Virus record (IMG/VR): IMGVR_UViG_3300032270_001188 | Coordinates: 1-45,283 of that record | Reading direction: 5' to 3' (one strand) | Origin: a virus | Lineage: Duplodnaviria; Caudoviricetes | DNA length: 45,283 nt | Part shown: in pieces, positions 13,818 through 45,283 of the stretch | Layout: every line of letters starts with the position of its first letter | Numbering within the stretch: position 1 is the stretch's first letter | Notes under the pieces: generated by a model | The model's database searches: none | Told to the model about the DNA's origin: nothing | What the model saw: the letters and a program-made list of their open reading frames with translations, nothing else | Program-made: the position numbers and the translations under genes

Positions 13818-16800
13818 GAGCGTTGCCTTGTATTGTCAATTTGTGCCTTCATCTTTCTTACGGCTATTGTAGCAATTTCCTCGGCACTGGCATTCGGTCC
13901 GCCAGTCACATTCATGTTGATGGATATTCCTCCGCCACCACCTGAGCCCATTGCCGGAGCCGTGGATGTTTTGGCAGGGTAACCCGTATCGCCGTATGGA
14001 CCGCCACCAGGAACGACGTGTAAGTGCCTGGTGCCCCCGTAGCCGTGGAACTCAGCAAAACCGCCATTAGCAGTAGCCAAGCGCTGGTAGGCGCCTAGAT
14101 TTGCACCAACCAGATCGTACGCCCTGCCAGTTACATGGTCAGAGTTGGTTGACCCGAGTCCAGTGGTTCTGTACGCAGATGTCATTGTTCGTTTTCCAGT
14201 AAGCATTCCATCCATTGCTGAATGACGACCCATGGTTCGACCAAGGCGAGATGATGTCGTATCGCCAACACCCTTTCCTCTCGGACTGGAGGTGTCGTTG
14301 TTGTCGGCAATAAACTTGATGAACTTATCTGTCATCCATTCGGGTTTTGACGAATCTCTAGTGTCAAAGAATGTGCCGAACATTTCAATTATTGCGCCGT
14401 AAGTGTCCCTTAGTTCATCTGGCAGATTGTCAATGACTATATTTAACTCATCATTTTTGGCTCTTTCGGTTATGCCAATAAGGGCAGGATCCATGCCGAA
14501 CTGGGCCAGTCGGTTTCTGAAATCATCCTGCGTGAGGGTTTCCATGTCGAGGTCACCAAAGAAATCTCCACTCTCAAACTTGCTTACCAATGCTGCGCTT
14601 TTTTCTGGATCCATTGCCGCCAATGCTTCCTGGAATTTATTTGCATCAATTTTGAATGCATCTGCCCCAACTCCAGTTTTTAGTAACTGGGCATTGATGT
14701 TTGCTCCTTGTGCCAGTCCTCCATCCTTGATTCCCTTGTTGATGTAATCCTGAACCATCACGCCGGTACCGCTATTTACAAATTCATTCTCCATGCCATA
14801 GAAGTTGCCCTTGTTTCCTTTTTCGTCAACCTGAGAGAACGCTGCTCCACCTACACCAAACTGTCTTTTCGCTTCAAACAGACCCTGAAGACCACCGCCT
14901 GCAAAAGTCAAGAAGTTTGGCATGAAATCTGACATAAACGTAGCGAGCTGTTCGTCGCTCACATCCCCACCAGCGGCAAATTGAAGGTCGCCGAAAGCCC
15001 TTGCTTGTTCGTCAAGTATTTCTGGAATTTTTAGTTCATCTACTTTTTTCTGAAAAACCTCAAGACCCTTTAATGCCATGTCCATCTGTACGCCGCGAAG
15101 TTGTTCGCGGGTTTTGAGGGTTGCCACCCCAAGGTCTTCCATTTGCTTGGTGAAGTCTTGTGTGGCATCAAACAGGTCAACACCAGTCGTCATGGCCATA
15201 AGTTCAATCTCTTGCTCGGTTTTACCAGTCATGCTCATTAATTCTGTGAGCCTCTTTTGATAGATTTCCATCAAATGGTTTTGAGCACCCTGCTTCTTAC
15301 CGACTTCAGTTAAAACGGCAGCGGCTTCTCCTGGTCGTTTGTCAATGGCTTTTTTCTGTTCGTCAGTCAGATTAACGCCTATATTTTCTGAATTGTCAAT
15401 TAGATATTTGGCGAAATCCTCTGAACTCATAGAAGCGGCTTTTGCCATTAGGGCATCTGTGTTTGTGTTCATTGATTTGTTTGACTTAATGAGAGCCGAA
15501 TCACCCGTGAATCCACTAGCTAGCATTTCTTGTTGAGCAACACCCAACTGGTTGGTGATCAGTTGGTCAAAAGCGCTTTCAAATGCTTCTTTGGATTCCT
15601 TTTTTTCTTTCTTGATTTTGTTTGCTCTACCCATCAATCCACCGACCGCGGCGCCGATAATCGCACCTGCTGCAGTTCCGAAACCAGGGGCGATCATTGT
15701 TCCTATTGCCGCACCTGCACCAGCACCAGCAAGAGCACCACCCCCGGCTGTTTCTGCCGTCAATGCAGTGCCACCTAGACCTACTGCCAAACCAGCGAGC
15801 GGGTTATACATACCAATCATCGAACCAGCACTAAGGAAGCCAGATGCTTTCTCGGAAACCATTCCCGAGTTTGCCAACATACTCAAACCCATCATGGTTC
15901 CCATGGTCCCTGTTGCCGAGCCTTGGAAACCTTTTCTATTTTCATTTCCGAATATTGCTCCACCAAGGCGACTAGCGCGAGCATCTCGGGAATTCAGTCT
16001 TTGGTTTTGCAAGAAGGTACCGACACGACCCCTTTGAAGCGGTCCCTTGGCACCAATGTTGGATGTCGGCGACAACCAGTTATTGTAAAGTTTACTGTTG
16101 AGATATTTTCCCTTCATGCTGTTGGGATCGTAGGTGCCTGGACCGTATGCAGCATTTGACGACAGCTTCCAAGCTTTATACGCTTTTGAAGTTGGTGTGT
16201 AAGGTTTTCCTGTTCCTGGATTAATGGGCGGACCAGAAGGTCCTAGATATTTACTATTTGCAACCTGCCTGTCGCGATATGCATCTGCTCTTCGTCCAAC
16301 AAATCCGCCAACACCAGTATTCTTTCCCAACATTCTGTCAAACATTGACTTTGGAGTACCATCTCTCCTGAACCCAGATGCACCATGAGTTTGACCCTCG
16401 CCAATAGATCGAGCGAATTGCTCTCTGCGATTGATGATTCTTCCTGTTGCATCAACTATTTTTGTGTTGCCTTTCATTCTTTGATCGCCAGCAACCGTTA
16501 CGCCACTCCTGTAACTAACACCATTTAGGTTTTTTTGTGAATAATTTTCTTGTCCGGTTCCGCGCCCGCCATACATATACTGGACACTCTTCCCACGAAC
16601 ATTTTGGGTAAGAATTTCTTTTCCTTTGTTGGGGCCAGATGTAATCAAGTGTCCACCGTTGGGACCTGATCCAGCTCGGACACTTCCACCGAATTGACTT
16701 CTCATTTGTGTTCGGTCTGCTCTCGTGAGTGGGGCAGAACCAGCACCACGAGATGCAAACCCAGCACTTCCAGTGCCACCACCCCTAGTGCCCGGTGTAC

Positions 16801-18694
16801 CCATATACGGACCACCCCTATGTCCGCCCATCGTCCTAATGGCATTGGAATTTTTTCCTAACGGACCCATCGTGCCGCCACTACCTTTTGGTCCATACTG
16901 AGCAAGTGGTTTTCCGTTCACGTAAATCACCCCTGCGCGAACATTCATGTCTGCCACTTCACGAATTCCGGATCTGCTATCCCCTCTCGTGAAATATCCC
17001 TTAGTGTTCTTCATTCCCTTAGACATGCCCATCAGCATCATTAGAGAGCCAGCACCACCCAAGCCACCAGGTAGAGCCTTTGTTACTGACATGAACTTGC
17101 CTAGGAAGCTGGTAAAAAGTTCAATAAGACTAGTGAAACCTTGTATGACTTTATTGATAAATGGAAGCGCCTGAAAAAAGAGTTTTCTCGCCTCTCCGAA
17201 ATACTCCATCACCTTAGTGATCAAGTTTCCAATATTTGTACCAAATTCTTCAAGAGGTACAGCATTGTCTTGAACCAATCTATTGAATTCACCAAACGAT
17301 TCCTTAAGATAATCTTTTAGTGGCCTAAAAACGTTCATGATCATATTTTCAAGAACGCGCGCACCGTCTATTAGGGGTCGCAGACCGTCAAGCAAACCGT
17401 TCCAACCGTCTTTAAACATGTCCCAAAATTTACCGAAGCGCTCAAAAATGCCCACTGCATTCGGTAGATAATCACGTATCACCCGAACTGCGAAATCTGC
17501 CACTTTTTGAGTAACGACTGAAATTTTGTCAATAAATCCACCCTTTCCGAAATCAGCAATGTCTCCCGACATTCTGAACAATGCAGTTCTCATTATTTCA
17601 AAAACTTCTCTAGCTTCCTTTTTTACTGGTCCGAGAAACTGCTGTCCAAAGTCACCGAACAGTCCTTTCATCATGGTCAACTGACCCTTGAGCGTGTTTA
17701 TCAATGTGCCAGAAACTGCTTCAAACTGCCCATCCACGCCGCCAAGTTTTGCTAGTTCGCCAGAGGTTATTGCAGCAGTGAGTGCTTCTTTTGTTCCACC
17801 TTTTTTTCCTTTTGTTTTTTCGTACTCTTCAAGTGCTTTTTTCATTTGGGGACTGAATTTTTTTCCAGCACTCACCACATCTGCGTAACTTTTTTTCGTA
17901 TCTTGAAGTGTGGCAATAAGTGAACCAGCAGCCTTGGTTCCCTCTTTCATATCCATGCCAGCACTAGCGAAGTCCATCAAACCCTTGAGGGTTTCTTTTG
18001 AAGCACTAGTGAATTTGCTGGTTTTTGATATTTCTCCGTAAGCAGCAGCCAAGTTTTCAACACCAACAGATGCTAAATCAGCATCCATTGTTAGTGCTCT
18101 CATTTGCATTCTTGCTTGATTGAGACCAGAACCAAACTCAGTGGCTACACCCTTAGCAGAAAAAGCATACATTGCCGCTTGTTGCTCCCTAATGGCGGCC
18201 GCGGCCGTACCAGCAGCAATCACAAGACCAGCAAATGCTCCAGCAGCCATGGACATTGTATTCTTGTATGCCTTCATGATCATTTGTCCAGCAGCAAAAG
18301 CCGCATGAACACCAATCATTGCTGCTCCCATTGCTGCAAAACTAACAACAACCCCTTTTGCTGACATAGTGAGGAATTTCGTCATCATTTGACCAGTATT
18401 TCTGATCATTTTGTCATAATTATCAAAACTCTTTTTATACTTGCGCGAAACATGCTCTTGCGATTTATAACCCTTTAGTGCGAGTTTATCTTCGGTTTTT
18501 CGAACGCGCGATGCGAATCCATCGGACTTAGCCCTAGATTTACTATCCCTGTCCCTAGATTTTGATTCCCTGTCCCTGGATTTTGATTCCTTGTCCCTAG
18601 CACCAGCAAGCCTCTCAAGCTTCCTTCTGGTACGGTCAATGTCACTATCATCGGACTTGACTTCTATTTTTATAACGACGCGTTCGTCGGCCAT
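13814..18694 (-). CDS. Tape measure protein (1626 aa) with C-terminal M15/LAS-type zinc peptidase-like domain
   Basis: Longest tail gene, after the chaperone; Ala/Gly-rich helical sequence with hydrophobic segments. C-terminal SAYR...NSDHVTGRAYD...HLHV matches the SxHxxGxAxD / HxH pattern. Confidence 0.88.
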   Translation of the reverse strand: MADERVVIKIEVKSDDSDIDRTRRKLERLAGARDKESKSRDRESKSRDRDSKSRAKSDGFASRVRKTEDKLALKGYKSQEHVSRKYKKSFDNYDKMIRNTGQMMTKFLTMSAKGVVVSFAAMGAAMIGVHAAFAAGQMIMKAYKNTMSMAAGAFAGLVIAAGTAAAAIREQQAAMYAFSAKGVATEFGSGLNQARMQMRALTMDADLASVGVENLAAAYGEISKTSKFTSASKETLKGLMDFASAGMDMKEGTKAAGSLIATLQDTKKSYADVVSAGKKFSPQMKKALEEYEKTKGKKGGTKEALTAAITSGELAKLGGVDGQFEAVSGTLINTLKGQLTMMKGLFGDFGQQFLGPVKKEAREVFEIMRTALFRMSGDIADFGKGGFIDKISVVTQKVADFAVRVIRDYLPNAVGIFERFGKFWDMFKDGWNGLLDGLRPLIDGARVLENMIMNVFRPLKDYLKESFGEFNRLVQDNAVPLEEFGTNIGNLITKVMEYFGEARKLFFQALPFINKVIQGFTSLIELFTSFLGKFMSVTKALPGGLGGAGSLMMLMGMSKGMKNTKGYFTRGDSRSGIREVADMNVRAGVIYVNGKPLAQYGPKGSGGTMGPLGKNSNAIRTMGGHRGGPYMGTPGTRGGGTGSAGFASRGAGSAPLTRADRTQMRSQFGGSVRAGSGPNGGHLITSGPNKGKEILTQNVRGKSVQYMYGGRGTGQENYSQKNLNGVSYRSGVTVAGDQRMKGNTKIVDATGRIINRREQFARSIGEGQTHGASGFRRDGTPKSMFDRMLGKNTGVGGFVGRRADAYRDRQVANSKYLGPSGPPINPGTGKPYTPTSKAYKAWKLSSNAAYGPGTYDPNSMKGKYLNSKLYNNWLSPTSNIGAKGPLQRGRVGTFLQNQRLNSRDARASRLGGAIFGNENRKGFQGSATGTMGTMMGLSMLANSGMVSEKASGFLSAGSMIGMYNPLAGLAVGLGGTALTAETAGGGALAGAGAGAAIGTMIAPGFGTAAGAIIGAAVGGLMGRANKIKKEKKESKEAFESAFDQLITNQLGVAQQEMLASGFTGDSALIKSNKSMNTNTDALMAKAASMSSEDFAKYLIDNSENIGVNLTDEQKKAIDKRPGEAAAVLTEVGKKQGAQNHLMEIYQKRLTELMSMTGKTEQEIELMAMTTGVDLFDATQDFTKQMEDLGVATLKTREQLRGVQMDMALKGLEVFQKKVDELKIPEILDEQARAFGDLQFAAGGDVSDEQLATFMSDFMPNFLTFAGGGLQGLFEAKRQFGVGGAAFSQVDEKGNKGNFYGMENEFVNSGTGVMVQDYINKGIKDGGLAQGANINAQLLKTGVGADAFKIDANKFQEALAAMDPEKSAALVSKFESGDFFGDLDMETLTQDDFRNRLAQFGMDPALIGITERAKNDELNIVIDNLPDELRDTYGAIIEMFGTFFDTRDSSKPEWMTDKFIKFIADNNDTSSPRGKGVGDTTSSRLGRTMGRHSAMDGMLTGKRTMTSAYRTTGLGSTNSDHVTGRAYDLVGANLGAYQRLATANGGFAEFHGYGGTRHLHVVPGGGPYGDTGYPAKTSTAPAMGSGGGGGISINMNVTGGPNASAEEIATIAVRKMKAQIDNTRQRS
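18533..18600 (-). repeat. Three 21-bp (7-aa) repeats RD(K/R)(E/D)SKS at the tape measure N-terminus
   Basis: RDKESKS-RDRESKS-RDRDSKS. Confidence 0.8.
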
Positions 18695-24084: not shown

Positions 24085-24639
24085 CTATCTGTCCCCGTTT
24101 GGTGGAACCTCGATCAGGGGTTCGTCTGCCAATTTGACATCCGATTCAATGGGAACCCAAGCCCTTGAATAGATATGATCCTTGATTGCTCGATGTTTCA
24201 CTATGGTTCCATCCAACAGAACTTCAAACTCATCTAGGGTCATATTGAAGGCTGAACATAAATCCTTCTCTGTGGCAGCCCCAGAAATATGTAGTGTCCG
24301 TACAAGCGCCGACAACCTTTTCGTCACGACAGAACCCCTGCCACGATTCATTTGGATATGAAGAATCATTGCCTCTTGCTCTGTGCAGTCAATTATTGAC
24401 ACTGGCACAGTCTCGCCTGCCGATTCACGAATTTGCTGGTTTTTCAAAACGAGCGAACACCGTTCGTGGCCGTCAATAATTGTCATCCCATCTTTTCTGA
24501 CGAGAATTGGGGAGAGTATTCCGTGTTTGTGAACTGAGCGCGCCAAGACTGCAAGGTCTGGTGAAAGCATATATGTTGCTCGCCATGGTGCGGGATTCAG
24601 TTCGCTTGGTTTGACATGCATGAAATCACTCATTGGCAT
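24085..24639 (-). CDS. ParB/Sulfiredoxin-fold protein, IbrB-like (184 aa)
   Basis: LNPAPW...HGILSPILV...IIDGHER...HIQMNRGRG; coupled to the PAPS-reductase-like gene. Confidence 0.8.
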   Translation of the reverse strand: MPMSDFMHVKPSELNPAPWRATYMLSPDLAVLARSVHKHGILSPILVRKDGMTIIDGHERCSLVLKNQQIRESAGETVPVSIIDCTEQEAMILHIQMNRGRGSVVTKRLSALVRTLHISGAATEKDLCSAFNMTLDEFEVLLDGTIVKHRAIKDHIYSRAWVPIESDVKLADEPLIEVPPNGDR

Positions 24640-25750: not shown

Positions 25751-26484
25751 TAGAACTCACAATGTGCTTCTAGGTATTCAAGCAATCTTTCTGCTGTGGT
25801 GTTTCCATCAATTTCTGGTGTTGACCTAAGCCACTTGACAAAGTCGTACCAGCGACTCTGTTGCTCCACGCTGTCAAACACAATTGTGTACTGGACTACA
25901 GCCGTCGGCTTCTTCGTTCCAGGTATGGCCGTGCTGCCAAGAGTTGCCACATCCATTTCGCTTCCTTTTGGAACAACTGGAGCAACATACTCCTCTTCGT
26001 CTTCAATCATCACTGGGGGAATAAATTCAGTAGACGTAAGTATTTCGCTTTCTGAATTGTTCAGAGAATCCTCTATTGCTGCCATCTCAAATTCATCCAT
26101 ACCGAGACCGGACATCAGGTTGGAATAATCGTGCCCAACCTCGCTGATGAGATTCATGAGCAAATCTTCGTCATACCCACCAAGATCGGATGTTCTGTTG
26201 TCGGCATAGGAAAATGCCATAGCCTTATTTGCATCGCCTTCAAAGACGGTGCAGGCGATTGAGTCCCAACCGAGTCTTCTGGCTGCCTCAAATTGGTGAT
26301 TTCCAGCAATAACCGTGTACTTCCCATCATCGTTTTGTACGACGACTATCGGCTTTACTTGTCCGAATTCCTTGTATGACGCTGCGATTGCATCAACATC
26401 ACCACGGCGAGGGTTGTCCTTTAGGGAAACAAGACTGCCAATTGGTATGGAAAGGGAAACTAAAGATTCATGGATTCCGTTCAT
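25750..26484 (-). CDS. ParB N-terminal domain protein (244 aa)
   Basis: NPRRGDVDAIAASYKEFGQVKPIVV...IAGNHQFEAARRLGW...ADNRTSDLG. Confidence 0.85.
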   Translation of the reverse strand: MNGIHESLVSLSIPIGSLVSLKDNPRRGDVDAIAASYKEFGQVKPIVVVQNDDGKYTVIAGNHQFEAARRLGWDSIACTVFEGDANKAMAFSYADNRTSDLGGYDEDLLMNLISEVGHDYSNLMSGLGMDEFEMAAIEDSLNNSESEILTSTEFIPPVMIEDEEEYVAPVVPKGSEMDVATLGSTAIPGTKKPTAVVQYTIVFDSVEQQSRWYDFVKWLRSTPEIDGNTTAERLLEYLEAHCEF

Positions 26485-30246: not shown

Positions 30247-31569
30247 CTAAACGACAATACTGGCTCTTTTGCGTTGTGGCAACCCCAAACCCGTAAGATA
30301 TCCAAAGGCACCAGTAACCGAGTCAACTTGGTCGTCGTGGTCTGCTGCTTCCGGGAAGGTGGAAAGTTCGTCCAGCCAGTCGGTCAACCAAGGAGCTCGT
30401 AGGACCCTGATATTACCATTTGCTGCCGCCGCGGCGAACGGGCGAGCTCTAGTCACCTTGTCACCAGTTGACCTAATCCCAACAAAATCATACCCAGAAA
30501 GCACATATCGGGCATATTGGTCAATAAGAGCCTTGCCAGACGACCCAGGCTCTTGTTCCATCCGAATTGCCACGCTCGGCCCATCCTCTATGGCTGTCTG
30601 TCGAATCAGGTTTTCAACCTTCTCGCCCTTGACCCTGGCCCTCTTGACATCAAGAACCCAAGCAACACCGTTATCAAATAACATAAGGGTTCCAACGGTC
30701 CAGTCGGGGTTAGGGTTGGACTGGCTTGGCTCCGTTGCCGCCAAGTCCCAAAAGCGCACAGCCCGCGCCGAACTGGTCACTAGGGGTATTTCGTGCTGGT
30801 CAACCACGACAAAAGACGTTCTGTCAAATAGCGAACCAAGGGTGGTCGCCCACCAGTCGCCTTCCTCAAGTCTTCGCCTCTCAAGGGGGTCTAGGGCCTG
30901 TAGGGACCGACGGTATGAAGCGGCATCGATTCCTGGGTTGTCGGTCAAAAGGGACGGCACGAATATCCGATTTTCGGTCTTTCCTTCAACGATAAATCTC
31001 TGGCGAACCCAGTTGGGGGCAGGGTTTGAGGCCGCCCTCATTCGCAATGGAACATCCGAGAGAGCGCCGCTTACTGGTCGTCGTAGTCGAGAAAACAAAT
31101 ACCTGTAATCGCCTTCTCTGATTTCGGTGACTTCGTCCATTCCTATGAACTGGAATTCCGAACCCTTGTATCTGAGGTAGTCCCCCGTGTTGTTGAGGTA
31201 CCCGAAGGATATTCTGGCCCCAGAGGGAAAGGTGGCGATAAAACTGTTGTTGTTCCAGTGGACATCATCGTAGTTTGATATCCATTGGCGAAATCTGTCC
31301 ATGAGGGCGCCAGGGAGTGACAAGTCGGCGAATGTCCGTCTGAAAAGAATTGCCGAATAGTTAGGGACATCCACATACTGAAGCGCTGCCATTAAGAGGG
31401 CAGATGATTTTCCTCCACCGGCGGCACCACCGAAAAGCGCCTCAAGCGAGTAGCACCGCAAAAAAACCTTCTGCGTTAGCGAAGCTTCTTCTGGACAATA
31501 CGACGGAGCCTTGGGTTCCAAATAATCTATTACTTTTTGCCAATCTGCCATTCGTTCTTCCTCTATCAA
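30247..31569 (-). CDS. terL: Terminase large subunit (440 aa)
   Basis: Walker A GGAAGGGKS, Walker B IGMDE, ASNP coupling motif, nuclease WDLA and DDQVDS. Confidence 0.95.
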   Translation of the reverse strand: MIEEERMADWQKVIDYLEPKAPSYCPEEASLTQKVFLRCYSLEALFGGAAGGGKSSALLMAALQYVDVPNYSAILFRRTFADLSLPGALMDRFRQWISNYDDVHWNNNSFIATFPSGARISFGYLNNTGDYLRYKGSEFQFIGMDEVTEIREGDYRYLFSRLRRPVSGALSDVPLRMRAASNPAPNWVRQRFIVEGKTENRIFVPSLLTDNPGIDAASYRRSLQALDPLERRRLEEGDWWATTLGSLFDRTSFVVVDQHEIPLVTSSARAVRFWDLAATEPSQSNPNPDWTVGTLMLFDNGVAWVLDVKRARVKGEKVENLIRQTAIEDGPSVAIRMEQEPGSSGKALIDQYARYVLSGYDFVGIRSTGDKVTRARPFAAAAANGNIRVLRAPWLTDWLDELSTFPEAADHDDQVDSVTGAFGYLTGLGLPQRKRASIVV

Positions 31570-31792: not shown

Positions 31793-33805
31793 ATGGCTTG
31801 GAACACATACACAAATAAATCTGTTGCCGGAAACGGGAGCAAGGCACTCGTTGGGCCCGGAGCACCTATTGCTCAAAATCTTGGATTTGTTGGAAAGTCC
31901 TACAAAGACTCATGGGACATTGAACGCGCATACCGAGAGGGAATGCAACGCGTTACTTGGGTGGCTCGCTGTATTGACGTAATTGCTGGTAATCAAGCAC
32001 GATTACCCATAATTCTTCGCAAGGACAATTCCCCAGACGGTCAGATTCTTTCTGACGAAAAAATGGGAAAGTCATCACTGCTTGAAGTTTTGAACACGAA
32101 ATCAAACATTGGCGAAAATGCTTTCATATTTAGGTACAGAATCTCGGCGCAGTTGTTGCTCGGAACGCGTGGTGTTTTCATTGAAAAAGTGAGAGGCCGA
32201 GACGGTGGAATCATTGGCTTGAATTTGCTTCCACCCCAATCAACTGCTCCAATACCAGATGCAAAGAAATTTGTTTCTGGCTATGAAGTATCTCTTCCGC
32301 AAGGACAGATAGTCACACTAAGACCAGAGGATGTGGTTTGGATTCGTCGACCGCACCCGCTTGATCCGTACCTCTCAATGACACCAATGGAAGCGGCTGG
32401 CGTGGCCATTGAGATTGAGAACTTTGCCAAACTTTATAACAGAAACTTCCTAATGAATGATGGCAGACCTGGTGGTTTGCTTGTCGTTCGCGGACACCTT
32501 GATGACGAAGACAAAGAAGAACTGAGAAATAGGTTCAGAGGCAACTTATCTCGGGCTGGGCAAACAACGGTACTTGCCGCAGACGATGGTGCTGAATACG
32601 TGGATGTCGGTGCTTCACCACGAGATGCTGCATACATCCAAATGAGGCAAATAACCAAGGAAGAAATACTTGCTTCGTTTGGTGTTCCTGAAACGGTTAT
32701 TGGAAATGCTTCTGGTCGCACATTCTCGAATGCTTCTGACGAAATACGAGTGTTCTGGACGGAAACAATGCTTCCTCACCTTGAGCCAATAGCAAGGTCT
32801 TTGGATGAACTAGATGATGTCAATTACGTTGACTTTGACACCAGAGAAGTACCAGTACTGATGCTTTACAAGCAAGAGCGGGAAAGATACCTCAGTGATG
32901 AGTTTTCTCGTGGTTTGATCAGTCTCAACGAATACCGACTTGGCAGTGGACGCAAAGTCGTTGACTCTGACCTCGCTGATTCGCTGTTAATGAATCCAAA
33001 CCTCACCCCAATCGGCAACACCAAAAAGAAGATGGAGTCACCACCGATGATGGCTGGCGGACCACCTCAGGGCGCCGTTCCCGGAATGGGTGGCGAAGCT
33101 ATGCCGCCAGGAATGCCAGGTATGCCAGGTGCTGAGGCACCACCAGGGGCACCACCAGCCCCACCGGGAGGCGCAGAGCCAGACACGATGGCAGGAGCAA
33201 TCGCCGCAGCGATGCAGCAGGCAAATCCATCTGGAGCCACAGATGTACCAATGGCAACGGCGGCAGAAGCACCGATTGGTCAAGTGCCAATGGAAGTCAA
33301 GACGGCTGACACTGAAAGATCAATTGAGAGATGGTCCGAAATTCTTGGACGATCACTTGAGAGGGTTATTGAGCGTCAACAGAGAGTTGTGATGGAGAAA
33401 TCCATGGGAGCAAAAACAAAGAAGGCTCTATCGGCTGGAACAATGGATGTTCAGTCAGTATTCAACATGGATGTTTGGCAGAAACAGTTAGAGGATGATG
33501 TTAGACCAGTCTTGTTCGCCATCATTCAAGATGCCGCCGAGACGGCTGGACTTCCCAAGCCAGACAAGAAAGACATGGTTATTGCATCCACCGAAAGCCT
33601 TGTTCAACTGCAAACCCTCAACGAGCAGATTGAAAAAGACATAGGAACGGCAATCAAGTCTGCCCTCGGTTTCTTTGGTGACGATTCAAGGGTGGCTTCT
33701 TTCAAAGAAACGCTAATTGAAAGTTATGCGCAACTTGATGCCAAGGACAGATACGCCATCACATCTCATGTGACCTCATCGCTCTGGAGTCAATTCAGTA
33801 ATTAG
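31793..33805 (+). CDS. HK97-family portal protein with Pro/Gly/Met-rich linker and C-terminal helical extension (670 aa)
   Basis: VARCIDVIAGNQARLP, LLLGTRGVF, NFLMNDGRPGG, EEILASFGVP, NRSNA-like GRTFSNA, ISLNEYR motifs. Confidence 0.92.
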   Translation: MAWNTYTNKSVAGNGSKALVGPGAPIAQNLGFVGKSYKDSWDIERAYREGMQRVTWVARCIDVIAGNQARLPIILRKDNSPDGQILSDEKMGKSSLLEVLNTKSNIGENAFIFRYRISAQLLLGTRGVFIEKVRGRDGGIIGLNLLPPQSTAPIPDAKKFVSGYEVSLPQGQIVTLRPEDVVWIRRPHPLDPYLSMTPMEAAGVAIEIENFAKLYNRNFLMNDGRPGGLLVVRGHLDDEDKEELRNRFRGNLSRAGQTTVLAADDGAEYVDVGASPRDAAYIQMRQITKEEILASFGVPETVIGNASGRTFSNASDEIRVFWTETMLPHLEPIARSLDELDDVNYVDFDTREVPVLMLYKQERERYLSDEFSRGLISLNEYRLGSGRKVVDSDLADSLLMNPNLTPIGNTKKKMESPPMMAGGPPQGAVPGMGGEAMPPGMPGMPGAEAPPGAPPAPPGGAEPDTMAGAIAAAMQQANPSGATDVPMATAAEAPIGQVPMEVKTADTERSIERWSEILGRSLERVIERQQRVVMEKSMGAKTKKALSAGTMDVQSVFNMDVWQKQLEDDVRPVLFAIIQDAAETAGLPKPDKKDMVIASTESLVQLQTLNEQIEKDIGTAIKSALGFFGDDSRVASFKETLIESYAQLDAKDRYAITSHVTSSLWSQFSN

Positions 33806-33826
33806 ATATAGTAATTACTGAATTGA
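33790..33826. repeat. Perfect 15-bp inverted repeat with 7-nt spacer over the portal stop
   Basis: TCAATTCAGTAATTA-gatatag-TAATTACTGAATTGA. Confidence 0.85.
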
Positions 33827-33895
33827 TATTATTAGTTGCTGTAAACCCCACTAGTACTGGTTTATCATTGCTGAGCAAGCAACACACAAGGCAGG

Positions 33896-36800
33896 ATGAT
33901 GGACAATCTTCTTTTCAAATCAGGCAATAGTGGTCAAGTAAATGTTGACCAAGCACAAGGAATAGTTGAGTGCTTTGTCGCTGGAATCGGAAACAAAGAT
34001 TCTGTTGGTGACATCGTCGTAACTGGTGCTTTTGCCAAAAGTTTGCTGAGACGAAAGCCGCGAGTTGTTTGGGGACATTCATGGAATGACCCAATCGGAA
34101 AAGTTCTTGAGATGTACGAGGTTCCAGTTGGGGATTCTCGCCTGCCTGTCAAAATGCGAAATGCTGGCATTGGCGGTCTTTATGCAAAAGTTCAATTCAA
34201 CCTGCAGTCCGAAAAAGGAAAAGAAGCATTCGCCACGGTTGCTTTTTTTGGCGAAGACCAAGAGTGGTCAATCGGATACAAAACCATTGACTCCATATTT
34301 GATCCAAACCTTCAAGCAAACGTTCTAAAAGAATTAGAACTGTACGAGGTGTCCCCAGTTCTCCATGGTGCGAATCAGTTGACCGGAACAATCTCAATCA
34401 AGGCAGACGAAAAAGGTCACATGCCAATCATCCCTATGCAGGGTGGGGGTATGCCGATGATGCCTCTGATGGATCAGATGCCAAGAATCGTTGTTGTGGC
34501 TGCACCCAACGACCAACAGGATGAATCAAGCACTGACAATCCGTTCGCAGAAGGCATGTCACGCGAACTAGGACAGCCAGACAAAAACACACTGCAAGCA
34601 GAACTCACGGATCGAACTGGTTCGCAAATTGAAGTTATGAATGCAACAGAAAATATTGTTGTATTCCGACGCACTACCTCTGATGGCAAAGCCTCTATGT
34701 ATCGTCTCCCATATCACAAAGAGGGAAATCTTTACATGTTTGGAAAACCAGAGCCCTATGCGGCCGAGGCACCACAACCGCAAACCATGCAGGGCATTGA
34801 GCAGAAACCCGGCGCACCAGTTGTGGTTCCGAACGGCGGTATTGCATATCGCAACGATGACCAGCAAGAAATGATGAATTTGTTTGGAAACAATGGTGTT
34901 GTTCCATTTGAGAAATCAGATGTATCACACCTCATTGAGTTGCCAGAGTCTTACATGTCAGAAGCAAAGGATTATTTGAATCCTGTTTTGCGCCACCACA
35001 AGTTGGCTGGTCGACCAAGTTCAAAGGGAATCATCATTGATGGTCTCTTGACTGCAAATGCACTTGATGCACTTCAGAATGCCGTGAAGGCACTTGGTGC
35101 AACGATTGGTCAATCAATCGGAAAAGTTCGTGACCTTGCACAAACATTTAATCCTTACGCACTTGACGGCGACGGAGACGGATTCGTGCAAGACGGCAGC
35201 GCATTCCAACGCCCATACATTCCAATCAAGAAGGCAGGCTTTGACCTTCCCGATGTCCGTGGTCGTAAGCGCAGTGGAGACTCGCTTCTTGATAAGCCAA
35301 AAGCAACACCAAAGTTGCCTAAGGATAAAAACACTTGGACACGAGCTCAACGCAACGATGCTTTGACATCGGGAATGATGGAACCAGAAACACGTGAGGA
35401 TCTTGCGTTCCTTGCCAATCGTCGTCCAGAGAATGAAGGTGTTGCCAAGTATTGGGATATGTCGGAAGCCGACCTCACTGTAGAGGGGAACAAATTAGTA
35501 AACGCTCGCAGGCAAGCCACAGGGGCAGAGAAGGAAAAGATTGACGACGAGCTGCTCAAGGTGTCCCATGACTTCCAACGTCGCGCTTCCTACTCTGAAA
35601 CATTCGGACAAGAATTTGTTCCTCCAGCAAAACGAGAGATGCCTGCTGACATGGTGCCAGAGGCCGACAAGCCGAAGCCAGCAAGTAGACCAACCGATGA
35701 TCTGAGTGCCGAAGTACTTGCCGAAAGAAGAAGAGAGCGCGACCTTGATAGACAGGCCGAGGCTGCAATTGACCAAGCCCTTGAGCAATACATCGAAGAA
35801 TACGGCGAAGATGCTCCTGTCCCTGGCTTTGCATCTAGTGGAGAGAAACCGTTCACCAATACAGAAGTATTAATGGAAGTTGCTCGTCGTGACGGCTGGA
35901 AAGGTGGCGACAGACAGCCATCAAAGACTTCCTACGACAAGGCAAACGAAGCACTGAATGATTGGAATAACCTCAGCGACGAAGAGCGTGCTAATTTCCT
36001 TGACGACGACGAACTTACCATTGAACAGTTTGTGGATGAATTGCTTGAAATGCGCGATGTCAGACTGTCCAAAGAAAAAGAAGTCAGAAAGTTACGAACC
36101 GATGCTGAAAAGAAGCGTCGCTCCGACGAGGCTGGAAAAGTCAAGAAATTTGCTCAGGGCGATTTGTCGGGTGTGGAAACAAACGGTCTCCTAGATGTCC
36201 TCGGTGACGACACAGATGATTACGGTAATGCCAGCAATCTTTCTGTGAAATTCAGAAATTATGCACAGCAAAACTGGAAAGAAATGTCTCAAAAAGAGAG
36301 AGACACAGCAATGCGTGATAGCAACACCGTTGTTGATGACCCAGACTCGGTCGTTGAAACACTTAGAGACGCACTCATGGAATATGGATATAAAAATCCA
36401 AAATATAAAACATTCCTTGACGATCTGCAATCTATCGTAGATGAAGAAAACGAAATGTCAAGTGGCCTTGCATCGGGGGGTGGCGATGAACGAGCAGCCG
36501 AACTTGGACGTGGTGGCCGATTGGGATCCCGACCAGACGATGCCGAGTATCGCCGCGAGCAAGCAAAACAGAGAGAAAAAGAAAGCATTGAGCGAGAGGA
36601 CGACAGCAAATTCGTCAAGGCGTTTGATGCAGTTCTTGACAAGTACTTCCAGATGTGGGGATTTTATGCTCCAGATGAAGATGACAAGGGCTGGGATGAG
36701 CCTTTCGGTTTTGCCAGTCGTGGAAAAGACGAGGAAGTAAAGCAAGAAAAGCTTGATGAACTTGTTGAGGGCGTGAGAGTACGTTTGCTTGCCGAACTAG

Positions 36801-39800
36801 AAACTGCCGACCCAGCAACATGGAAGCCATCGTGGCGAAACGATGCGCTTCCGATCAATGCAACTACTGGAAAACCATACAGAGGATTTAATGCATTCTG
36901 GCTGATGTTGCGCGCAAAAGGCGAGCAATACAAGACTGGAAGATACGCAGGGTTCAATCAACTAAAAGCCCGTGGTGCCCAAGTTCGCAAGGGTGAAAAA
37001 GGTGTACCTATTCTTAGACCACAATTGGTGCAGGTTACGGATGACGAAGGAAATGTAAAAGAGTTCGTCAAATTCCGTGGCACCACCGTATTCAACATTG
37101 ATCAAGCAGATGGCGGAGACGAAGAGCTCAGGGCAATTCCAGCAGATTTGCCAGAAGAGCAACGCATCGCAATACTTGACACAACGATTTCCGAACTTGG
37201 CATAGATGTTCGCACTGAGAATGAGACACCGCACTACAGCCCGACTGAGGATTACATCTCAATGCCCGAGTTTGCAAAGGGTACGAGTCCACTTGAATGG
37301 AGTTCAACCCTCGCACACGAAACTGTCCACTGGACTGGTGGTGCAAGTCGTCTCAATAGACCGAGTGTTGCAAAGTACGGAACCGACAAATCAATTCGTG
37401 CATACGAAGAACTAGTTGCCGAAATTGGTTCAGCAATGCTTCTCGCCGCACACGGTATTGAGGCTCCATTCCGCCAAGATCACGCGCCTTACATCAAGGG
37501 TTGGTTGAAACTACTCACAGATGACCCAGACGCGCTTGGTCGGGCATTCAAGGATGCTCAAGCAGCCCTAAACCATTTGCTGGAAAAGTCACCCAACCTT
37601 CGCAAGTTATTCGGAGGCTTGGACAACGGCAAGAAGGCACCAGATGTTGATGCACCGGACATGGCTGAAGCACTGGTCGGTGCGAGCGATGGTTTTGCAT
37701 CACTACACAGAGTGCGCACACCAAGGAGCGAAGCACTAACTGGAATTCTCTACGACGACAACAGCAAAGACTTGATGGTTGGTTTTCAAAAGGGTAAGCC
37801 GTGGGACAAGCTCGGTCAAGCAGAGCAAGAGAACTGGATTGAAAAAGCCACAGAGGAAAGCAGGGATAGGGGCGGACTTTCATCTCCAGCAGAAATCCTT
37901 GATCTTGCTAGAGACGCTTACGATGATTCACGCGACACCGGTTGGTATGTCTATTCAGATGTCACCATGGATGAAGTTGAAGAACTTGCTGCAGTAAAAA
38001 GCAAGGGCAAGCACATCAATGCCCTAAAGAAACTCAAGACGGCTCGCAAGGCGACCGAAGAGGACAGTTTCAACTTCTTTGGCAGAGATGAACGCGTTCA
38101 GGATGTTGCAAAGGCTAAATCAACAGACGGTTTTGCCTCACGTGGTGGAAACGACAACTTGATTGTTGATAAAGACCCACGAACAGGTCGTGTAACTATT
38201 AGTGCAATGGTCACAGGTGACCGTGGTGCCAGCGAAGAGAATCGCGGAACGCGGCGAATGAGAGTCATAGTTGCTGGCGGCTCAATAACCGAAGCAAAAA
38301 GAAATTTCAGAAACCGAATGAAGGAAGATAAGGTTTCGTTTGCTGGCGAAAGTGATGGATTTGCCTCGCGCGGTGCTGCCGAGCCAAACGAAGGGTTGCG
38401 TCGACACAAGTTGATGCCAGCCGAAGTACGCAAAAACATGCCAGACCTTTACTCAACAGAAGATGTTCCACTAGAGGAAAAAGTATTGGCAGCGAAGTTC
38501 TTCTCGCCATACTCCAACTGGACATGGTATGCAGTTGAGTTTGACGGCGAAGATACATTCTTTGGCTATGTAGAGGGATTTGAAAATGAGTGGGGCAACT
38601 TCTCGCTAAACGAAATCGCTGGGGCAACACTTGGTGGTTCGCTTCCCGCAGTTGAGCGCGACACAAGTTTTAGACCAATCAAGTTTGGAGACTTCAACAA
38701 GGGCGATGGTTTTGCTTCGTCTGGATCAAAGAAACTTGGAGTGGAACCTCGCTTCCAGGATTCTGACTGGGTTGGTAAAACACAACAGCGCATCCTTCGC
38801 AGTGGCATTGATTTCCAAAGTCTCCCAGAAAACGACAGAATTGATTGGGCAAACTCATTCCTTGACGAGTGGCTCAGAGAAAATGACATGGGTTACGGTT
38901 TGTCGGATGTTGCCAACGGCAAGAGGATCAACAAGCGCCCAGATATTGATTTGCTCAACTATGCCGAAGATGCCTATGCTCGCATGTCTGATCAACATGC
39001 CTCAAAGCGAGCACAGTTTGGCGAAGAAACTCAGGGTCTTGCTTCTGTTGGTAGCCGAACGAGACGCCTTGGTATTCAGCCAAGCCAAGCAGTTGACTAC
39101 GTTTCATACGACCCCGATTCAGAGAGCCTGTTCGTTGCTTACAAGCGCGAAGATGGCCGTGGGGATATGTATGTCTACGAGGGCGTCAACATGGATGACG
39201 CAATTGAAATTGAGAATGCCAATAGTGTTGGTAGGGCAATCAACGACATCAAGCGTCGCAAGAACGTGCGCAAGGCAACACCAGATGAAGTCATTGGGCT
39301 ATCAGGTTCAGAAGACAAAGCAGGCAAAGCACTAAGAAGAAGAAAAGGCGTAAATACCGCCACAGCAGTATTTGATGATGCACGGCACAGCAAGAACAGA
39401 GATGTTCAGTTGGAAATCAATGCCGACAGAATAACCGTAGATGATGATGGATCCGCAATCTGGACATCAGCAGATGACACGATGCGCTATGCGATCAGCA
39501 TGGATGCCGACGGTGGATACACGGTTACTTCTGAGAAACTCCGCAGTGGTGGCAGGGATGAACCCGATGAATTTGAAACAGTTTCATCGGTACGAACGGA
39601 CAGTCAACCAGATGCAATAACTGCCCTCTTTGATGCCGCAAAGAGCAAGATCGCTGGCGACATCGAAGAGCAAGAACTTGATCGCGAACTCGCTGAGGCG
39701 AAGCGCGAACTAGACATGAGTGGAGATGCCCCAGGAGTCATATCGCTTGATGTGACCTACTCATCAGCACTTGATGCTGTTGACTATAACCCGAGCACTC

Positions 39801-42800
39801 AAGAAATGCGCGTTTCATTCAAGGACGGTGGAACCTACATCTACGAAGGTGTTGACCGAGAAACATTTGATGGCTTCAGTGACGCCCCAAGTAAGGGTCG
39901 TGCGATGAATGAAATCAAGCGCGCATACCCGTACCGCAAGGACAGCGAGTGGGCTGGTGGCGGCGACGATGACGGTGGCGTAGAAGAGTTTGATGTTCGT
40001 GGCTCAGACGCAGTTGAGAAGGTCAGTTACGATCCAGAAACAGAAGACCTCTTGGTCGTTTATGCAGGCGGCAAGGGCTATGTCTACAAAGGGGTAACTA
40101 GAGAAGAAGCAGATGCCGTTCGCTCAGCACCAAGTAAGGGTCGAGCAATCAATGATGTCAAGCGTGCTCATGAGGTGCGCCTGTTGAAGGGCGAAGATAT
40201 TCGCCTATTCGGTGGCAAGAAAGATTCACCAAGAACAGATGAAGCCACGACTCCCGATGTAGATGAACTGCGAACTTTCATTGACGAGCAAGAGGGCTTG
40301 CTTGAGGCCATGGAATTGAACGGTGAGTCAGCAGACAAACTTGCTCAACAGAGAAAACTTATAGAGAAGGCAAAACTTGATCTATCAACAGGTGGCACAA
40401 CAACGATTGATCCAGCGCCAGTAGCAAAGCCAAGGATTCCTACCAGCAAGCCGCCACGCGGTGGTAAGCGTGTTCGTAATCGCAATGTCGTCATCTCAAT
40501 GGAACAGGGCGACCTTGATGAAATTATCGCAGCAGAATCAGGTGGCACAACAGTAGATGCACTTCGTGCCGCTAAGGGTGTTGGCAAATACACCAAGGGA
40601 CCACGCAAGGGAAAGCGTAGAGGCCCAGACACCATTGCTGTACGCGATGCCGAAACAGGCGAACTACTCCATTTCAACGAAATTGAACTAACCAGTTCTT
40701 CGGCAAGAGGCTATGTCGGTCGAAAGCAAGGTCAGTCACCAACTGGTAAAAAGCGTGGCTTCATAAGAGCACGTTCTTATACTGGTCGTCAGAATCACAA
40801 GATTGTCGGCGACGAGGGTCCAAGCTTGCGTGGTGAGGGCAAGGGTATGACTGAGTACGACAAGCGCGTATATGGTCTCGGCTCAGATGAAAAGAACCGC
40901 GAATTTGGTCTTGCCTCAACTGGCTCCGAATCAACCCCGTACGACTATTTAGATATTTTTGCAAAGCCAACGCCAAGAGAGGAATTGAGAAATTACGAAA
41001 ACTATCTTGACTCTGAGTACGGCAACGACTTCATGGATTACACCCAAATGTCTGACGAAGAAGTCAAGCAAGAGGTAATGAGAAATTACCGAATGAGTCG
41101 TAGCGAAGCAAATGCATTTGTCAAAAAGTTGCGTAAAGATGAAGATACATACGATGACTTGTGGATAGCGGCAGACAATGCAAGCGATGACGAAGATGGC
41201 TTTGCTTCACGCGCTATGTCAGATTCTGCTAGAAACCCAGACGGTGATACTTTTGGATCCTTCAAGAAGGTTATCGCAAGAGAATCTGGTTACAAGTTTG
41301 ACGATTTAGATGATGATTACCAAGAGGAAATTTACAATGCCTTCCTAGATGGCACTGCTGATCCAGTAATGATCGCTAACGACATCGCCGATGAGATGGA
41401 TGCAGCATCAGATGACTACAAAGAGCGTCAGATCGGATTCGGTTCGCGTGGTGAGGGAAATGGACCTTGGGGTTCCAGTATGGGTATTGACCCTGATGAC
41501 CCTGAACTTGATGACACATTTGTTGAAGGATACATACTTGACCATGTCAGTGACGGTGAAATTGAATTTGAAAAGTTTGAACGTTGGAACAATAGAAGCA
41601 AGGAACCACTGAGTGATTCTGAACTTCAAGATTTATATGACAGACACAATTCTGACGACGATGCCATTAGAGCAATAGCGAATGATGAAGTAGCTTCACG
41701 TTTCTTTGATGACCTAGTAGACGACCAATACGACAACATGGTTGATGCTCAAAATTCTAAATACGAACCCGACTACGAAGACTACGAGAGAAGTCGTGAC
41801 GGCTTTGCCTCACGTGGGGACAGGGAACTTGCAAAACTCGATGATGACACCGCAGGAAGATACAAGGCAGCCAAAGACAAACTCAATGCACCAGTCGTAA
41901 AGGGAGAAAAGAGCCCAATATTGGGCATGAGCTCATATGATTTTGACACCTGGCGCGATGGTGGTTCCAAGTTTGTCAGACGTTCTGACTCAACCTATGA
42001 CATCTACGGTCCTGTCAATATGCCGATTTACCAAGACGAGGCAACGTTCAATACTCTATTTGCTGACCAAATAGTCAAGGATTTCTCTAGAAGCGACCTG
42101 ACGATTGAGGAACTCGCAGACCGATTTGATCTCACGCCAACCCAGGTTTATGAAGTTCTTGACAATGCCAAGGAAGATATGCTCAGCCTTGATGGGGTTC
42201 GTGCAGGAAAGTATCGTGCCGATCCTTACCGAATTGAACAACTTGAGAAAGTGGAAAAGATTTTTGTTGGTGATCGCAAACATACGGACATTCCTGAACC
42301 AACCGGTGAAGCGCTTGCGAAAAAACAACAAAGATTGGAAATCCAGCGCGCTAATACAGAAAATGACGCCACACGAAAGAAATACAACGACGCACTCAGG
42401 GAACTACAATACTCCGATGAGTACACCCAGGTAGAAACCGGTTACAACAAAACCCGAAGAGAGAACGAACAACGCGAGTACTGGCTTGAAAAAGACAGAC
42501 TGCTCCAAAGCAACGTGGACGACCTTGAGGGGACAGACGAAGACAACTTGTCCATCCTTACCAATGCACTTGCTGGCGATGACATTCTTGAAATACTCAA
42601 AGAGTCGGGATTGGATTTCAATGATCCAACCAGCGATTGGTACGAGGATGACAATGGGATCATGCGTGATGAAGATGGCGACGAAGTCAGTTATGAAGAT
42701 CTCTATTGGGACAACTTTGATGTTGACCTTGAAGATCTGAGCGCCGAGGAACGTGAAAGTCTTAGCGATGCTGTAGAGGCGACTAAGAATTTGATTCGCA

Positions 42801-45283
42801 CACGAGCACAAGATGCCAAAAAAGAGTTGGGTCTCTCGGATAACCCCAGTGCATCAGACATCAACATGGCAATCAGGGCAAGAAACACTGCCGCCCGAGA
42901 GCCACTTACAAAGCTTGAGAAAGAACTCAGCAAAAAGTTCCCACTAGTTCCCGTTCCAGATGAACAACCAAGGTCTTCACTTTACGGCATCGTGGATGCA
43001 GATGGCAACAAGATTGACTATAGAAAACTTGCCACTGAGTACGAAAAAATCCGAGAAGCTCGCCGCGCCGAATTCCTTGCCCGCAGAGAAGAGGATGGTT
43101 TTGCATCTAGTTCAACGACAAAACCATCTGTTGATGCCGAGACACAAAAGAATATTGAGAGAGCATCGCTTGGCCAGTTGGCAGAAATGATCCAAGACGA
43201 CTTGGATGAGCAGGGCAAGAAACTGTACTTTGGAGCAGTTCCATATGTTGATGCTCTATCAACCATGAACTCCATGGACGACCGTTACGGTGCTGACTCA
43301 GCACAAAGCATCGTCGCCTACACACTGAGCAACTTGTCAACCTATAGGGGTGCCAAGGCTCGGGCAATCAAGGCAGAACTCAAGAAGAGACTTGATGGCA
43401 AAGTTGACAAGGATGGCTTTGGCTCTCGCGGGGGAGCATATAAGAAATATGATTCTGGCTGGGATGGCATCATTCAATCCCTAGAGACTGCGCCCGACAT
43501 GAATGCTGCTCGTGCGTTCCCAAGTTGGGACGATTTGGATTACGACGAACAGAATGAATTTGTTCACGAACTCGACTACGACTACATGTACGACAAGCAC
43601 GGGGATCTTGGCGATGACGGAATTGATGACGCCATTGCGACCGGCCAGTACGACGATGAGATTAACGAACATGCCGCCATGGTGTGGGACACAATCACTG
43701 AACGAAAAGAAAAAGAACGCCTTACCGCTGCTGTCACTGGTCCAGCGAAAGACGACGAGGTTGGCAAGTTTTACACCGTTGACCACTGGTACAACAATGA
43801 TGCACGACACGATGAATTCCTAGATCGTGCAGATGGGGATCTTGGCGAAGCCATGAGGCTGTCCTACGAGGACTTCCTTGATGGCTTTGGCTCAATGGGT
43901 TCAGATGACGAAGAATTGTTCTATGACGACGAAAGACGTCCGCGTAGAGGATCTAGGAAGTTTGCATCCAACCGTGAGTACGGAGAGGACAACGAAGAGG
44001 CTGCAAATATGCGCCGAAGAGATGACGGCGATGGCTTTGCATCGGATGGCTGGACCAAAACCAGTGATGGGGTCGAGATGGACGCACCAGATATTGATGG
44101 CGTCTATCAGATACAGGGAAGCAATAACGAAGGGTTTGTAGTTACTAGGTACTCGGATGCCTTCCGAAATGGTGGTCAGGACGGACAGGAATACGAACAC
44201 AACAGAGTGTTCAAATCTAGAGCCGCTGCCAAGAATTGGGCAGAAAAAGATTACGACAAGATAATCGAAAACATGAGCGGTGCTGATGAGTACATGAGCG
44301 AAGATGGCTTTGCCTCAGGTGGCCGAATCCGAATGTCAAACGGCGACCCGCAAATGGACATATGGGTTTCTGACGAAGGCGATGAATACTACGAAGCAAC
44401 AAGGGACGGTTATTACCCAATTGAAGGTGTTAGAAGAACCAGCAATTCAAGGGGCAGATATTACCCAGAATCGGGAGCAACCTATGGTGGAACAGGTTTG
44501 GACGATGATCAGAAAAAAGAAATTGCTGAAACACTCAAGGGGTCAACAGATCCGTTCATTCAGAAATTATTAGGAGATTTAGAATTTCGCGGACGCCTTT
44601 CCGACAAGCAGTGGGGAATCCTAAAGGGAAGAGCAGACAGGGAAAAGAAAAAGACTGCTTCCAAAAAACCAAGTGGTTTCGTTAGCAATGTACGAAATGG
44701 TGGCACCATCGCACCAGGTGCCCGACCAGTAGTTTCTGCTGGCAAGGATCCTTTCGTCACCCCAACAAGTGAACAGATAGCCGATATAGCCGGACTTGAG
44801 AAAATCATAAGCGAAGCAAAATACAATGGTCAGGCTCTCAGATTCAACTACAACGGCAAGGAAAGAGAAGTATTCCCTGTCAACACTTACACCAACCCTA
44901 AAACGGGCAAAGTCAACATGGTTGGGCAAGATGCCGAAGGTGTACAAAAGACATTCACGATTGACAAGATGAGTCCTAGCGAGATGGCATCAAGCACAAA
45001 CGACGGCTTTGCATCGGGCAGTGATGAGTATACGAACCTTCAGTTCAGCAGAGAAGATTTGGGAAAGATTCTTGACAGATTCAGGCAACGGCCAGAGTTT
45101 CAAGAATGGATGGAAGTCCAGGATGAACTTGAAAGACGCATGAGGCGCTCCGATCTTCCCCGCAGTAGATTCACAGAGCTTGACAAAGAAGAGACGAGAC
45201 TAGACAAGATCGCAAACGTGGCTCGTCAGCAAGTAATCGAAGAGCTTCTTTATGAAGGCGAGATAAGCCTGCTGGATGACGGA
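33896..45283 (+). CDS. Giant prohead-protease-fused polyvalent protein / polyprotein (partial, >=3796 aa)
   Basis: Not in the track (no stop before the window end). ATGATG at 33896/33899; manual translation found no in-frame stop up to ...SLLDDG at 45283. All plus-strand track ORFs here are in another frame. Confidence 0.92.
   Translation, partial: [3796 protein letters not shown]
33950..34400 (+). other. HK97-type prohead (maturation) serine protease domain
   Basis: [26 protein letters not shown] (His at 34076), EWSIGY (Ser at 34268), [12 protein letters not shown]; position directly after the portal. Confidence 0.92.
36722..37690 (+). other. ArdC-like module: ArdC-N ssDNA-binding domain plus zincin metallopeptidase (MPTase)
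   Basis: WKPSW..[52 protein letters not shown] (HExxH at 37316), [20 protein letters not shown]. Confidence 0.9.
37727..40180 (+). other. Four KTSC-like domains (about 37727-38030 with insert, 39083-39260, 39761-39940, 40004-40180)
   Basis: For example [31 protein letters not shown]...[12 protein letters not shown]; all share S.A...Y......L.V.[FY]...Y.Y..V...S.G+..N.[ILV]K. Confidence 0.8.
38408..38700 (+). other. DUF2958-like domain
   Basis: [18 protein letters not shown]...[42 protein letters not shown]...VERDTSF. Confidence 0.8.
42070..42165 (+). other. Helix-turn-helix motif within the giant protein
   Basis: [31 protein letters not shown]. Confidence 0.6.
44795..44975 (+). other. WYL-like (Sm/SH3-fold) domain within the giant protein
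   Basis: [32 protein letters not shown]...[19 protein letters not shown] parallels the WYL pattern I..A......+.F.Y....R.V.P......+F.+D++. Confidence 0.55.

Follow-up and report, generated by a model that had tools for sequence, protein, structure and literature searches.

A protease-led cassette array in an uncultured lake phage, with modules joined by a recurring junction peptide

The window, i.e. the whole 45,283-base virus record analysed here, comes from an uncultured lake phage of the contractile-tailed type, as it encodes a sheath, tube, tape measure, baseplate, terminase and portal. Beside the packaging genes, terminase and portal, lies a giant ORF that opens with a prohead protease and runs off the end of the contig. 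The features of this ORF and of its immediate neighbor are as follows:

31793..33805, + strand: portal protein, directly 5′ of the polyprotein ORF, without the junction motif
33896..45283, + strand: protease-led cassette polyprotein, 3,796 stop-free codons, 3′ end missing at the contig end
33917 and 34400, + strand: invariant Lys8 and Lys169, flanking S78 (alignment of 41 rows)
33956..34393, + strand: S78 (HK97-type) prohead protease, His61 at 34076 and Ser125 at 34268
35078..35098, + strand: NAVK-ALG, candidate Lys site opening the cargo chain
35147..35215, + strand: FNPYALDGDGDGFVQDGSAFQRP tag, found again at the N-terminal end of another giant ORF in two complete relatives
35825, 36464, 36707, 37691, 38129, 38357, 38708, 39035, 40874, 40907, 41198, 41435, 41801, 43097, 43415, 43883, 44033, 44306, 44675 and 45005, + strand: starts of the junction peptides G[FL][AGV]S (span 35825..45016)
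36707..37690, + strand: ArdC cassette (ArdC-N and MPTase), HETVH at residue 1141
37691..38128, + strand: KTSC cassette with a helical insertion (profile match and model)
38129..38356, + strand: 76-aa cassette with no family assigned, in 11 of 29 proteins, cleanly absent from one strain contig
38357..38707, + strand: DUF2958 cassette (Pfam)
39035..40873, + strand: three KTSC domains in one segment that has no motif inside it (613 aa, residues 1714-2326)
41435..41800, + strand: 122-aa acidic cassette, in 14 of 29 proteins, missing from a strain contig
43097..43414, + strand: phrog_13953 cassette (137-position profile), no function assigned

The original prediction, made from the letters of the window alone, described a single unbroken frame in the slot that a prohead protease occupies after the portal, and this is what the stop-free codons amount to. 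That the frame is an assembly artefact is excluded by an 11.9-kb contig from another sample, which spans positions 33000-44709 and differs there by two short replaced stretches, the frame being kept in both, and by the relative P0001, whose protease is 99% identical to that of the window and whose chain is 5,072 aa long. Given the length of P0001, roughly 1,000-1,900 residues are missing from the window protein; the closest relatives are 4,100-5,700 aa long (about 5,000) at full length and share a fixed C-terminal segment.

Pfam places S78 at residues 23-166, ArdcN at residues 960-1052 and MPTase at residues 1095-1217, and the model of the ArdC cassette matches R388 ArdC (E 2e-19). The positions initially proposed between motif copies for ArdC, KTSC, DUF2958 and the domain at 43097-43415 were all reproduced by Pfam or phrog profiles. 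The chain thus combines several unrelated domains, including ArdC-N and MPTase, in a set that varies among relatives. PADLOC gave no match within the polyprotein ORF, an Atlas search with one module returned only unnamed viral clusters below 0.9, and the same search with the C-terminal segment returned no match. Many cassettes within 35825-45283 are very acidic (23-30% D+E) and could be DNA mimics; by eye, the acidic cassettes share a helical element of the form W-x-x-L-(S/D)-x-x-E-(Q/R).

The first 640 or so residues had been described as free of the junction motif, with at least 18 copies beyond. Indeed, no copy occurs before residue 644, and the ORF contains 19 copies of G[FL][AG]S, compared to a mean of 0.36 and a maximum of 3 in 5,000 shuffles, and 10 copies of DGFAS, compared to a shuffle mean of 0.005, so that the predicted excess over shuffled sequences is real. 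The spacing of 50-624 aa first given holds generally, except for a GLGS at residue 2327 that lies only 11 aa ahead of a GLAS. The motif is followed by Arg in 7 of the 19 copies and by Gly in 14, giving an F-A-S-R-G form. An AlphaFold2 model covering residues 930-1735 (mean pLDDT 61) places all six motifs of this region in stretches with pLDDT below 50 (271 of 806 residues), in agreement with the expectation that they lie in disordered linkers. In this model, there is one motif per module boundary, located directly before the first strand of a domain. The claim that motifs sit at domain edges stands for the placements reproduced here, with the qualification that three KTSC domains share one motif-free segment at residues 1714-2326.

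To compare related chains, we cut the window protein and P0001-P0028 (29 proteins, 28 of them complete) at the motif, which yielded 649 segments falling into 127 clusters, 76 of which have at least two members. The first segment and ArdC are present in 29/29 proteins and the last segment in 28/28 complete ones, while the remaining segments vary in content and order; conservation of the motif amid swapped segments, as predicted, is thus what these homologs display. Consistently, with the motif masked, 31.7% of 8,123 internal alignment ends fall within 5 aa of a motif versus 7.1% expected (38.5% unmasked and 38.7% with random sites masked, versus 6-7% for random positions), keeping in mind that the ends are not independent, the proteins being related. 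The same is seen between strains: one strain-contig joint, 38106-38353 with 18 letters between, corresponds to a net loss of 228 nt, i.e. the 76-aa cassette, and another, 41443-41810, to a loss of 366 nt, i.e. the 122-aa cassette, the short side of this joint being only 29 letters. Four breakpoints in strain contigs (41443, 41810, 44316 and 45012) lie within motif DNA, and 8 of the 11 loose ends listed (13 in total) lie within 30 nt of a motif start by hand count, about a tenth of the stretch lying that close; 4 of 10 strain-contig joints (35986, 36598, 37849 and 42351) are clearly off the motif. Elsewhere, the window has a gene for an annealing protein of the Rad52 family. The polyprotein gene itself is a cassette array, with a fixed protease front end followed by at least 19 exchangeable modules joined by one peptide.

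The family is large: among 584 candidates, 253 proteins of 2,087-6,643 aa match the protease region (120 of them listed), and we estimate that about 660 viral stretches hold a relative. Across relatives, the junction peptide takes the forms GFAS, GLAS, GLSS, [RK][LF]SSG, GLRS, GMRS, PLGSR, STRS and GMSS, with the shared core x-(F/L/M/T)-(A/G/S/R)-S; each lineage has its own variant, which in many cases recurs in its tape measure and in the further giant head proteins it encodes. In the window, copies outside the polyprotein occur in two tail proteins:

18509..18520, − strand: GFAS(R) at residue 59 of the tape measure protein (13814-18694)
16751..16762, − strand: GFAS(R) at residue 645 of the tape measure protein
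22775-22786, − strand: GFASR at residue 133 of the tail-completion (Phage_tail_S) protein, not found in the homolog of the complete relative G001

The copy in the tail-completion protein may be due to chance. Confinement of the motif to virion-module proteins is borne out in G001, where, of 202 ORF pieces, none contains GFAS other than the tape measure and three giant head-type ORFs, namely the protease ORF, one of 1,456 aa and a third giant ORF; GFAS was not found in the capsid or portal protein. Of 26 tape measures, 18 could be tested, and in 12 of these the two sites were matched best by the profile of their own lineage, compared to 2 of 18 on control stretches; the test failed in six (G007, G008, G009, G010, G011 and G027), with profile classes that we set ourselves and related genomes that represent about six independent lineages.

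The third giant ORF (L085:17698 to L086:8156 in G001, L094:7525-15606 in G002) lies far from the head genes; it contains a DGDGDG tag, three HExxH modules, WYL, DEDDh exonuclease and GNAT-like parts and the junction peptide of its lineage. It has no S78, and it is headed by the same DGDGDG-type FNPYALDGDGDGFVQDGSAFQRP tag that follows the protease in the window ORF. The tag is hence a candidate head-loading handle, and, as judged from an ORF that carries both tag and motif without S78, the protease fusion is probably not the sole targeting device.

At the front end, the protease domain scores 34.5-38.7 bits against Pfam S78 (cut-off 21), and His61 and Ser125, which had been singled out as the catalytic residues at 34076 and 34268, are invariant in 41 aligned relatives. 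The invariant Lys8 and Lys169 are likely self-release sites of S78. With its position after the portal, its intact His and Ser and the Lys junction of the capsid protein, the domain resembles HK97 gp4 (Peptidase S78), but it is fused to more than 3,600 further residues and, with 42.5 bits against TIGR01543, stays under the equivalog cut-off of 59. A further likely Lys cleavage site, NAVK-ALG, marks the start of the cargo chain. In another form of the locus, found in 12 of 31 loci examined (from 80), the protease ORF stops at 455-482 aa and the cargo ORF goes on in the −1 frame, beginning with K-ALG or similar and a DGDGD-like tag; these loci (L181, L183-L186, L188, L190, L191, L200, L201, L203 and L211) carry an A7 run about 1,370-1,450 nt after the protease start, and the run with its −1 overlap is a candidate programmed frameshift. 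Such a frameshift is ruled out for the window ORF, in which protease and cargo are fused in frame, the longest A run is 6 and none lies near residues 390-460. In the window phage, any free protease must come from proteolysis.

The capsid gene lies 3′ of the polyprotein in G001, and the delta-domain junction of the capsid reads Y-x-x-K-D in six of six distinct junctions from the GFAS, PLGSR and LSSG lineages, the capsid cut sites being deduced from sequence. Going by the available text of PMC10275583, HK97 capsid protein is cut at K103/S104; this likeness, together with the fixed active-site loops, indicates that Lys sites are most likely what S78 reads. There is no Lys in the junction peptide, and, going by the deduced capsid sites, capsid and cargo would not share one cleavage motif. 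The original prediction, in which the fused S78 also cuts the junctions, fares poorly: the active-site loops, Lys8 and Lys169 are unchanged across lineages with different junction peptides (41 rows) and the capsid site remains Y-x-x-K-D, whereas the motif drifts over GFAS, LSSG, PLGSR, GLRS and STRS and is also present in the tape measure, a tail protein outside the head. These features make a second cutter more likely. We therefore regard as unlikely that S78 itself cuts the junctions inside the prohead by reading F-A-S-x, then a small residue, in the register of its Lys sites, since its P1 would have to be R, S, G, L, V and others. Nevertheless, S78 is fused, intact and universal in the family, the hydrophobic residue is followed after two residues by Arg-Gly in 7 of 19 copies, giving an F-A-S-R-G shape that an S78 with a loose P1 could read, and a short motif directs the cutting of ejection proteins by T4 gp21 and SPN3US gp245, as far as the available portions of PMC7411985 and PMC10052503 tell.

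Regarding a second cutter, the ArdC MPTase is unlikely to be the sole enzyme, as its annotation is missing in 64 of the 120 long homologs listed, several of which keep the motif (some with 8-15 copies). The most likely candidate would be the putative HExxH zincin of a giant ORF that lies two genes 3′ of the polyprotein in 32 of 35 records, a gene seen only in relatives and located beyond the window. HExxH is found at the expected distance in 72 of 95 segments of this ORF, the other 23 being too short for the test, and 28 of 28 aligned rows retain it unchanged at an identity to the first row of only 14-48%, with ExxAE in the consensus; among 1.84 billion proteins, only 40 representatives match. 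A lineage-specific reader would be expected to look like this, its catalytic motif conserved and the rest of the frame changing fast. Many zincins favor a hydrophobic residue after the cut, in which case the cut would fall before Phe. Against the second enzyme, the fold evidence is middling (model pLDDT 75.5; matches mostly to zincins, the best with Z 7.5, rmsd 5.4 and 172 aligned residues), Foldseek gave no significant match for the model, and searching solved structures by sequence, with the alignment of the zincin as query, yielded no more than designed helical repeats and a peptidase M60 (E 1.5); the F-A-S-R-G form, which leaves room for S78, and the six failed tape-measure tests also count against it.

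Between the polyprotein and the zincin ORF, relatives encode an acidic protein with a PepSY match, which exceeds the Pfam cut-off in one of five proteins tested and is weaker in the others (PDB 9vy3, E 2e-5). A predicted complex of the PepSY domain with the zincin scored 0.00 and carries no weight either way. The G001 protein (L084:1822-3255) and its homologs contain several Lys sites, and its C-terminal piece matches the C-terminal part of the maturation-protease genes of Gordonia and Microbacterium phages. Other possible proteases are a proteasome-beta/HslV-like protein of G001 (L088:7202-7867) and the further HExxH modules of the third giant ORF.

Alternatively, the peptide might stay uncut and serve as a docking or handling signal for a phage part (capsid wall, portal or ejection chaperone), or be recognized by a host protease once ejected. 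Any reader that co-evolves with the peptide would account for variants specific to a lineage, cargo proteins and tape measure are both expected to leave the virion at infection, actinobacterial hosts have proteases of their own and G001 adds its proteasome-beta-like protein. We nonetheless find this improbable, to about the same degree as cutting by S78, as one copy per boundary ahead of the first strand of a domain suits release over anchoring and a candidate handle exists already in the form of the separate N-terminal tag.

The variation of the motif codons had been taken as a sign of selection on the peptide. Part of this holds: Gly, Ala and Ser codons vary, 103 GFAS copies in ten related ORFs use 44 different 12-mers, Gly and Phe codon use is near background and the entropy of the third Gly position is 1.74 bits versus 1.84 for the background. 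However, Ala (GCC) and Ser (TCN) are biased in the same ORFs and Phe is TTT in 12 of 12 GFAS copies of the window, which indicates that DNA-level descent contributes. In our reading, the motif would be kept by peptide selection plus the spread of copies through recombination at the motif DNA. That it is a recombination scar or a favored flexible linker, multiplied through duplications at 12 nt of microhomology and read by no protein, agrees with the strain breakpoints in motif DNA, the biased codons and the Rad52-family protein but is the least probable explanation considered here, given the near-background freedom of third positions and the tape measure, which contains no cassette array and yet holds the variant of its lineage at two homologous sites in many genomes.

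With the two candidate enzymes taken together, we consider cleavage of the junction peptide by a phage enzyme probable. For the fuller reading, in which the chain is loaded into the head and a phage protease, probably another than the fused S78, cuts it at the peptide, we see an even balance of chances; we infer cleavage, packaging and the identity of the cutter alike. According to this second-enzyme reading, the chain would co-assemble into the prohead in the manner of HK97-type proteases, and S78 would cut the Lys sites (capsid delta domain, Lys169 and Lys398), freeing the cargo chain. A second enzyme, most likely the downstream zincin, would cut x-(F/L/M)-x-S, either as the virion matures or once the chain has been ejected. 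Modules released in this way (ArdC, KTSC, DUF2958 and many small acidic domains) might act early in infection against host defenses, and the 12-nt motif DNA might double as a crossover point for cassette exchange. The segment with three KTSC domains and no motif sits awkwardly with this scheme, as does the module at residues 2338-2434, for which we found no convincing free-standing relative, the one match, of 152 aa on a 1.4-kb contig, being uninformative. More speculatively, and with a rather low probability, one could imagine a two-protease, two-code system: the Lys-specific S78 would mature the head and destroy the PepSY inhibitor, and the zincin thus freed would cut the lineage-private peptide, releasing 20-30 injected anti-defense proteins and trimming the tape measure, with the peptide DNA as crossover site, as in an integron-like array at the protein level.

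The closest described kind of protein is the polyvalent protein, for which self-processing by MPTase and injection have been proposed (Iyer et al. 2017, PMC5512222). Like polyvalent proteins, the chain is a giant multi-domain protein of the virion module, with ArdC-N and MPTase and a variable architecture. It differs from them, going by the available text of that paper, in two respects: S78 is N-terminal here, whereas assemblin-like peptidases are described as always C-terminal, and 20-30 modules are set off by one peptide common to the tape measure, whereas the available text names no junction motif or processing sites and KTSC is absent from the main text. As regards ejection proteins, prohead proteases are reported to cut them at AXE (available parts of PMC7411985 and PMC10052503). 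Both T4 gp21 (IPI-III, Alt) and SPN3US gp245 thus use a short motif (AXE in SPN3US) for packaged ejection proteins, but these are separate genes shedding propeptides and the capsid uses the same motif, whereas here there is one cargo chain and the capsid site (Lys) differs. In one group of jumbo phages, a conserved zincin has been noted that might act as a second enzyme of maturation (PMC7824862, available portion). According to the accessible text of PMC7213743, the protease activity of R388 ArdC is dispensable for conjugation, and ArdC has been reported in huge phages in a preprint whose available part does not mention polyproteins (bioRxiv 2025.02.27.640493). In the main texts we covered, mostly from outside subscription journals, we found no description of a motif-delimited, protease-led phage chain; the supplementary architecture lists of Iyer et al. 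could contain such proteins.

Like eukaryotic viral polyproteins and Gag/Gag-Pol, the array combines one ORF, a repeated junction motif and a protease of its own. The motif recurs at domain junctions in predicted flexible linkers, and some relatives split protease and cargo into two ORFs, the latter in the −1 frame, which overlap at the A7 run. Unlike in those viruses, the modules are exchangeable accessory cassettes, the window fusion is in frame and cleavage would be a predicted step; there is no homology.

An actinobacterial host is suggested by the WhiB gene of G001, a complete relative of 150.9 kb. Nearly identical DNA turns up in runs from lakes, freshwater and drinking water (20 rows from 18 studies, one row possibly being the source itself), and the phages would form an abundant freshwater group that infects actinobacteria. 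The nearest S78 domains of cultured phages, from Gordonia, Brevibacterium and Streptomyces phages, are 35-42% identical; no cultured phage exceeds 42% identity in the protease and none of the nearest cultured models has the zincin ORF. In Streptomyces phage Gilgamesh, gp48 (L256:9979-23853) is a 4,624-aa protein encoded between portal-MuF and protease genes, in which no junction repeat of the GFAS type was seen by eye. In Gordonia phage DalanDe, gp27 (L252:10641-15542, 1,633 aa) has S78 about 1,120 residues from its start, a cultured fusion in the opposite order. The family offers concrete lineage-specific candidate cut sites and candidate enzymes for the processing of polyvalent proteins; its more than 120 segment families, most of them without a known domain, are separable candidate anti-defense proteins, and one head gene can serve as a rapidly reshuffled payload array.

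As to genome layout, the terminase (30247-31569, − strand) and portal (31793-33805, + strand) genes are divergent and the tail module lies on the opposite strand from the head module, G001-G003 being laid out alike. A ParB-like, PAPS-reductase-like and ParB-like trio (24085-26484, − strand), conserved in G001, looks like a DNA modification cluster.
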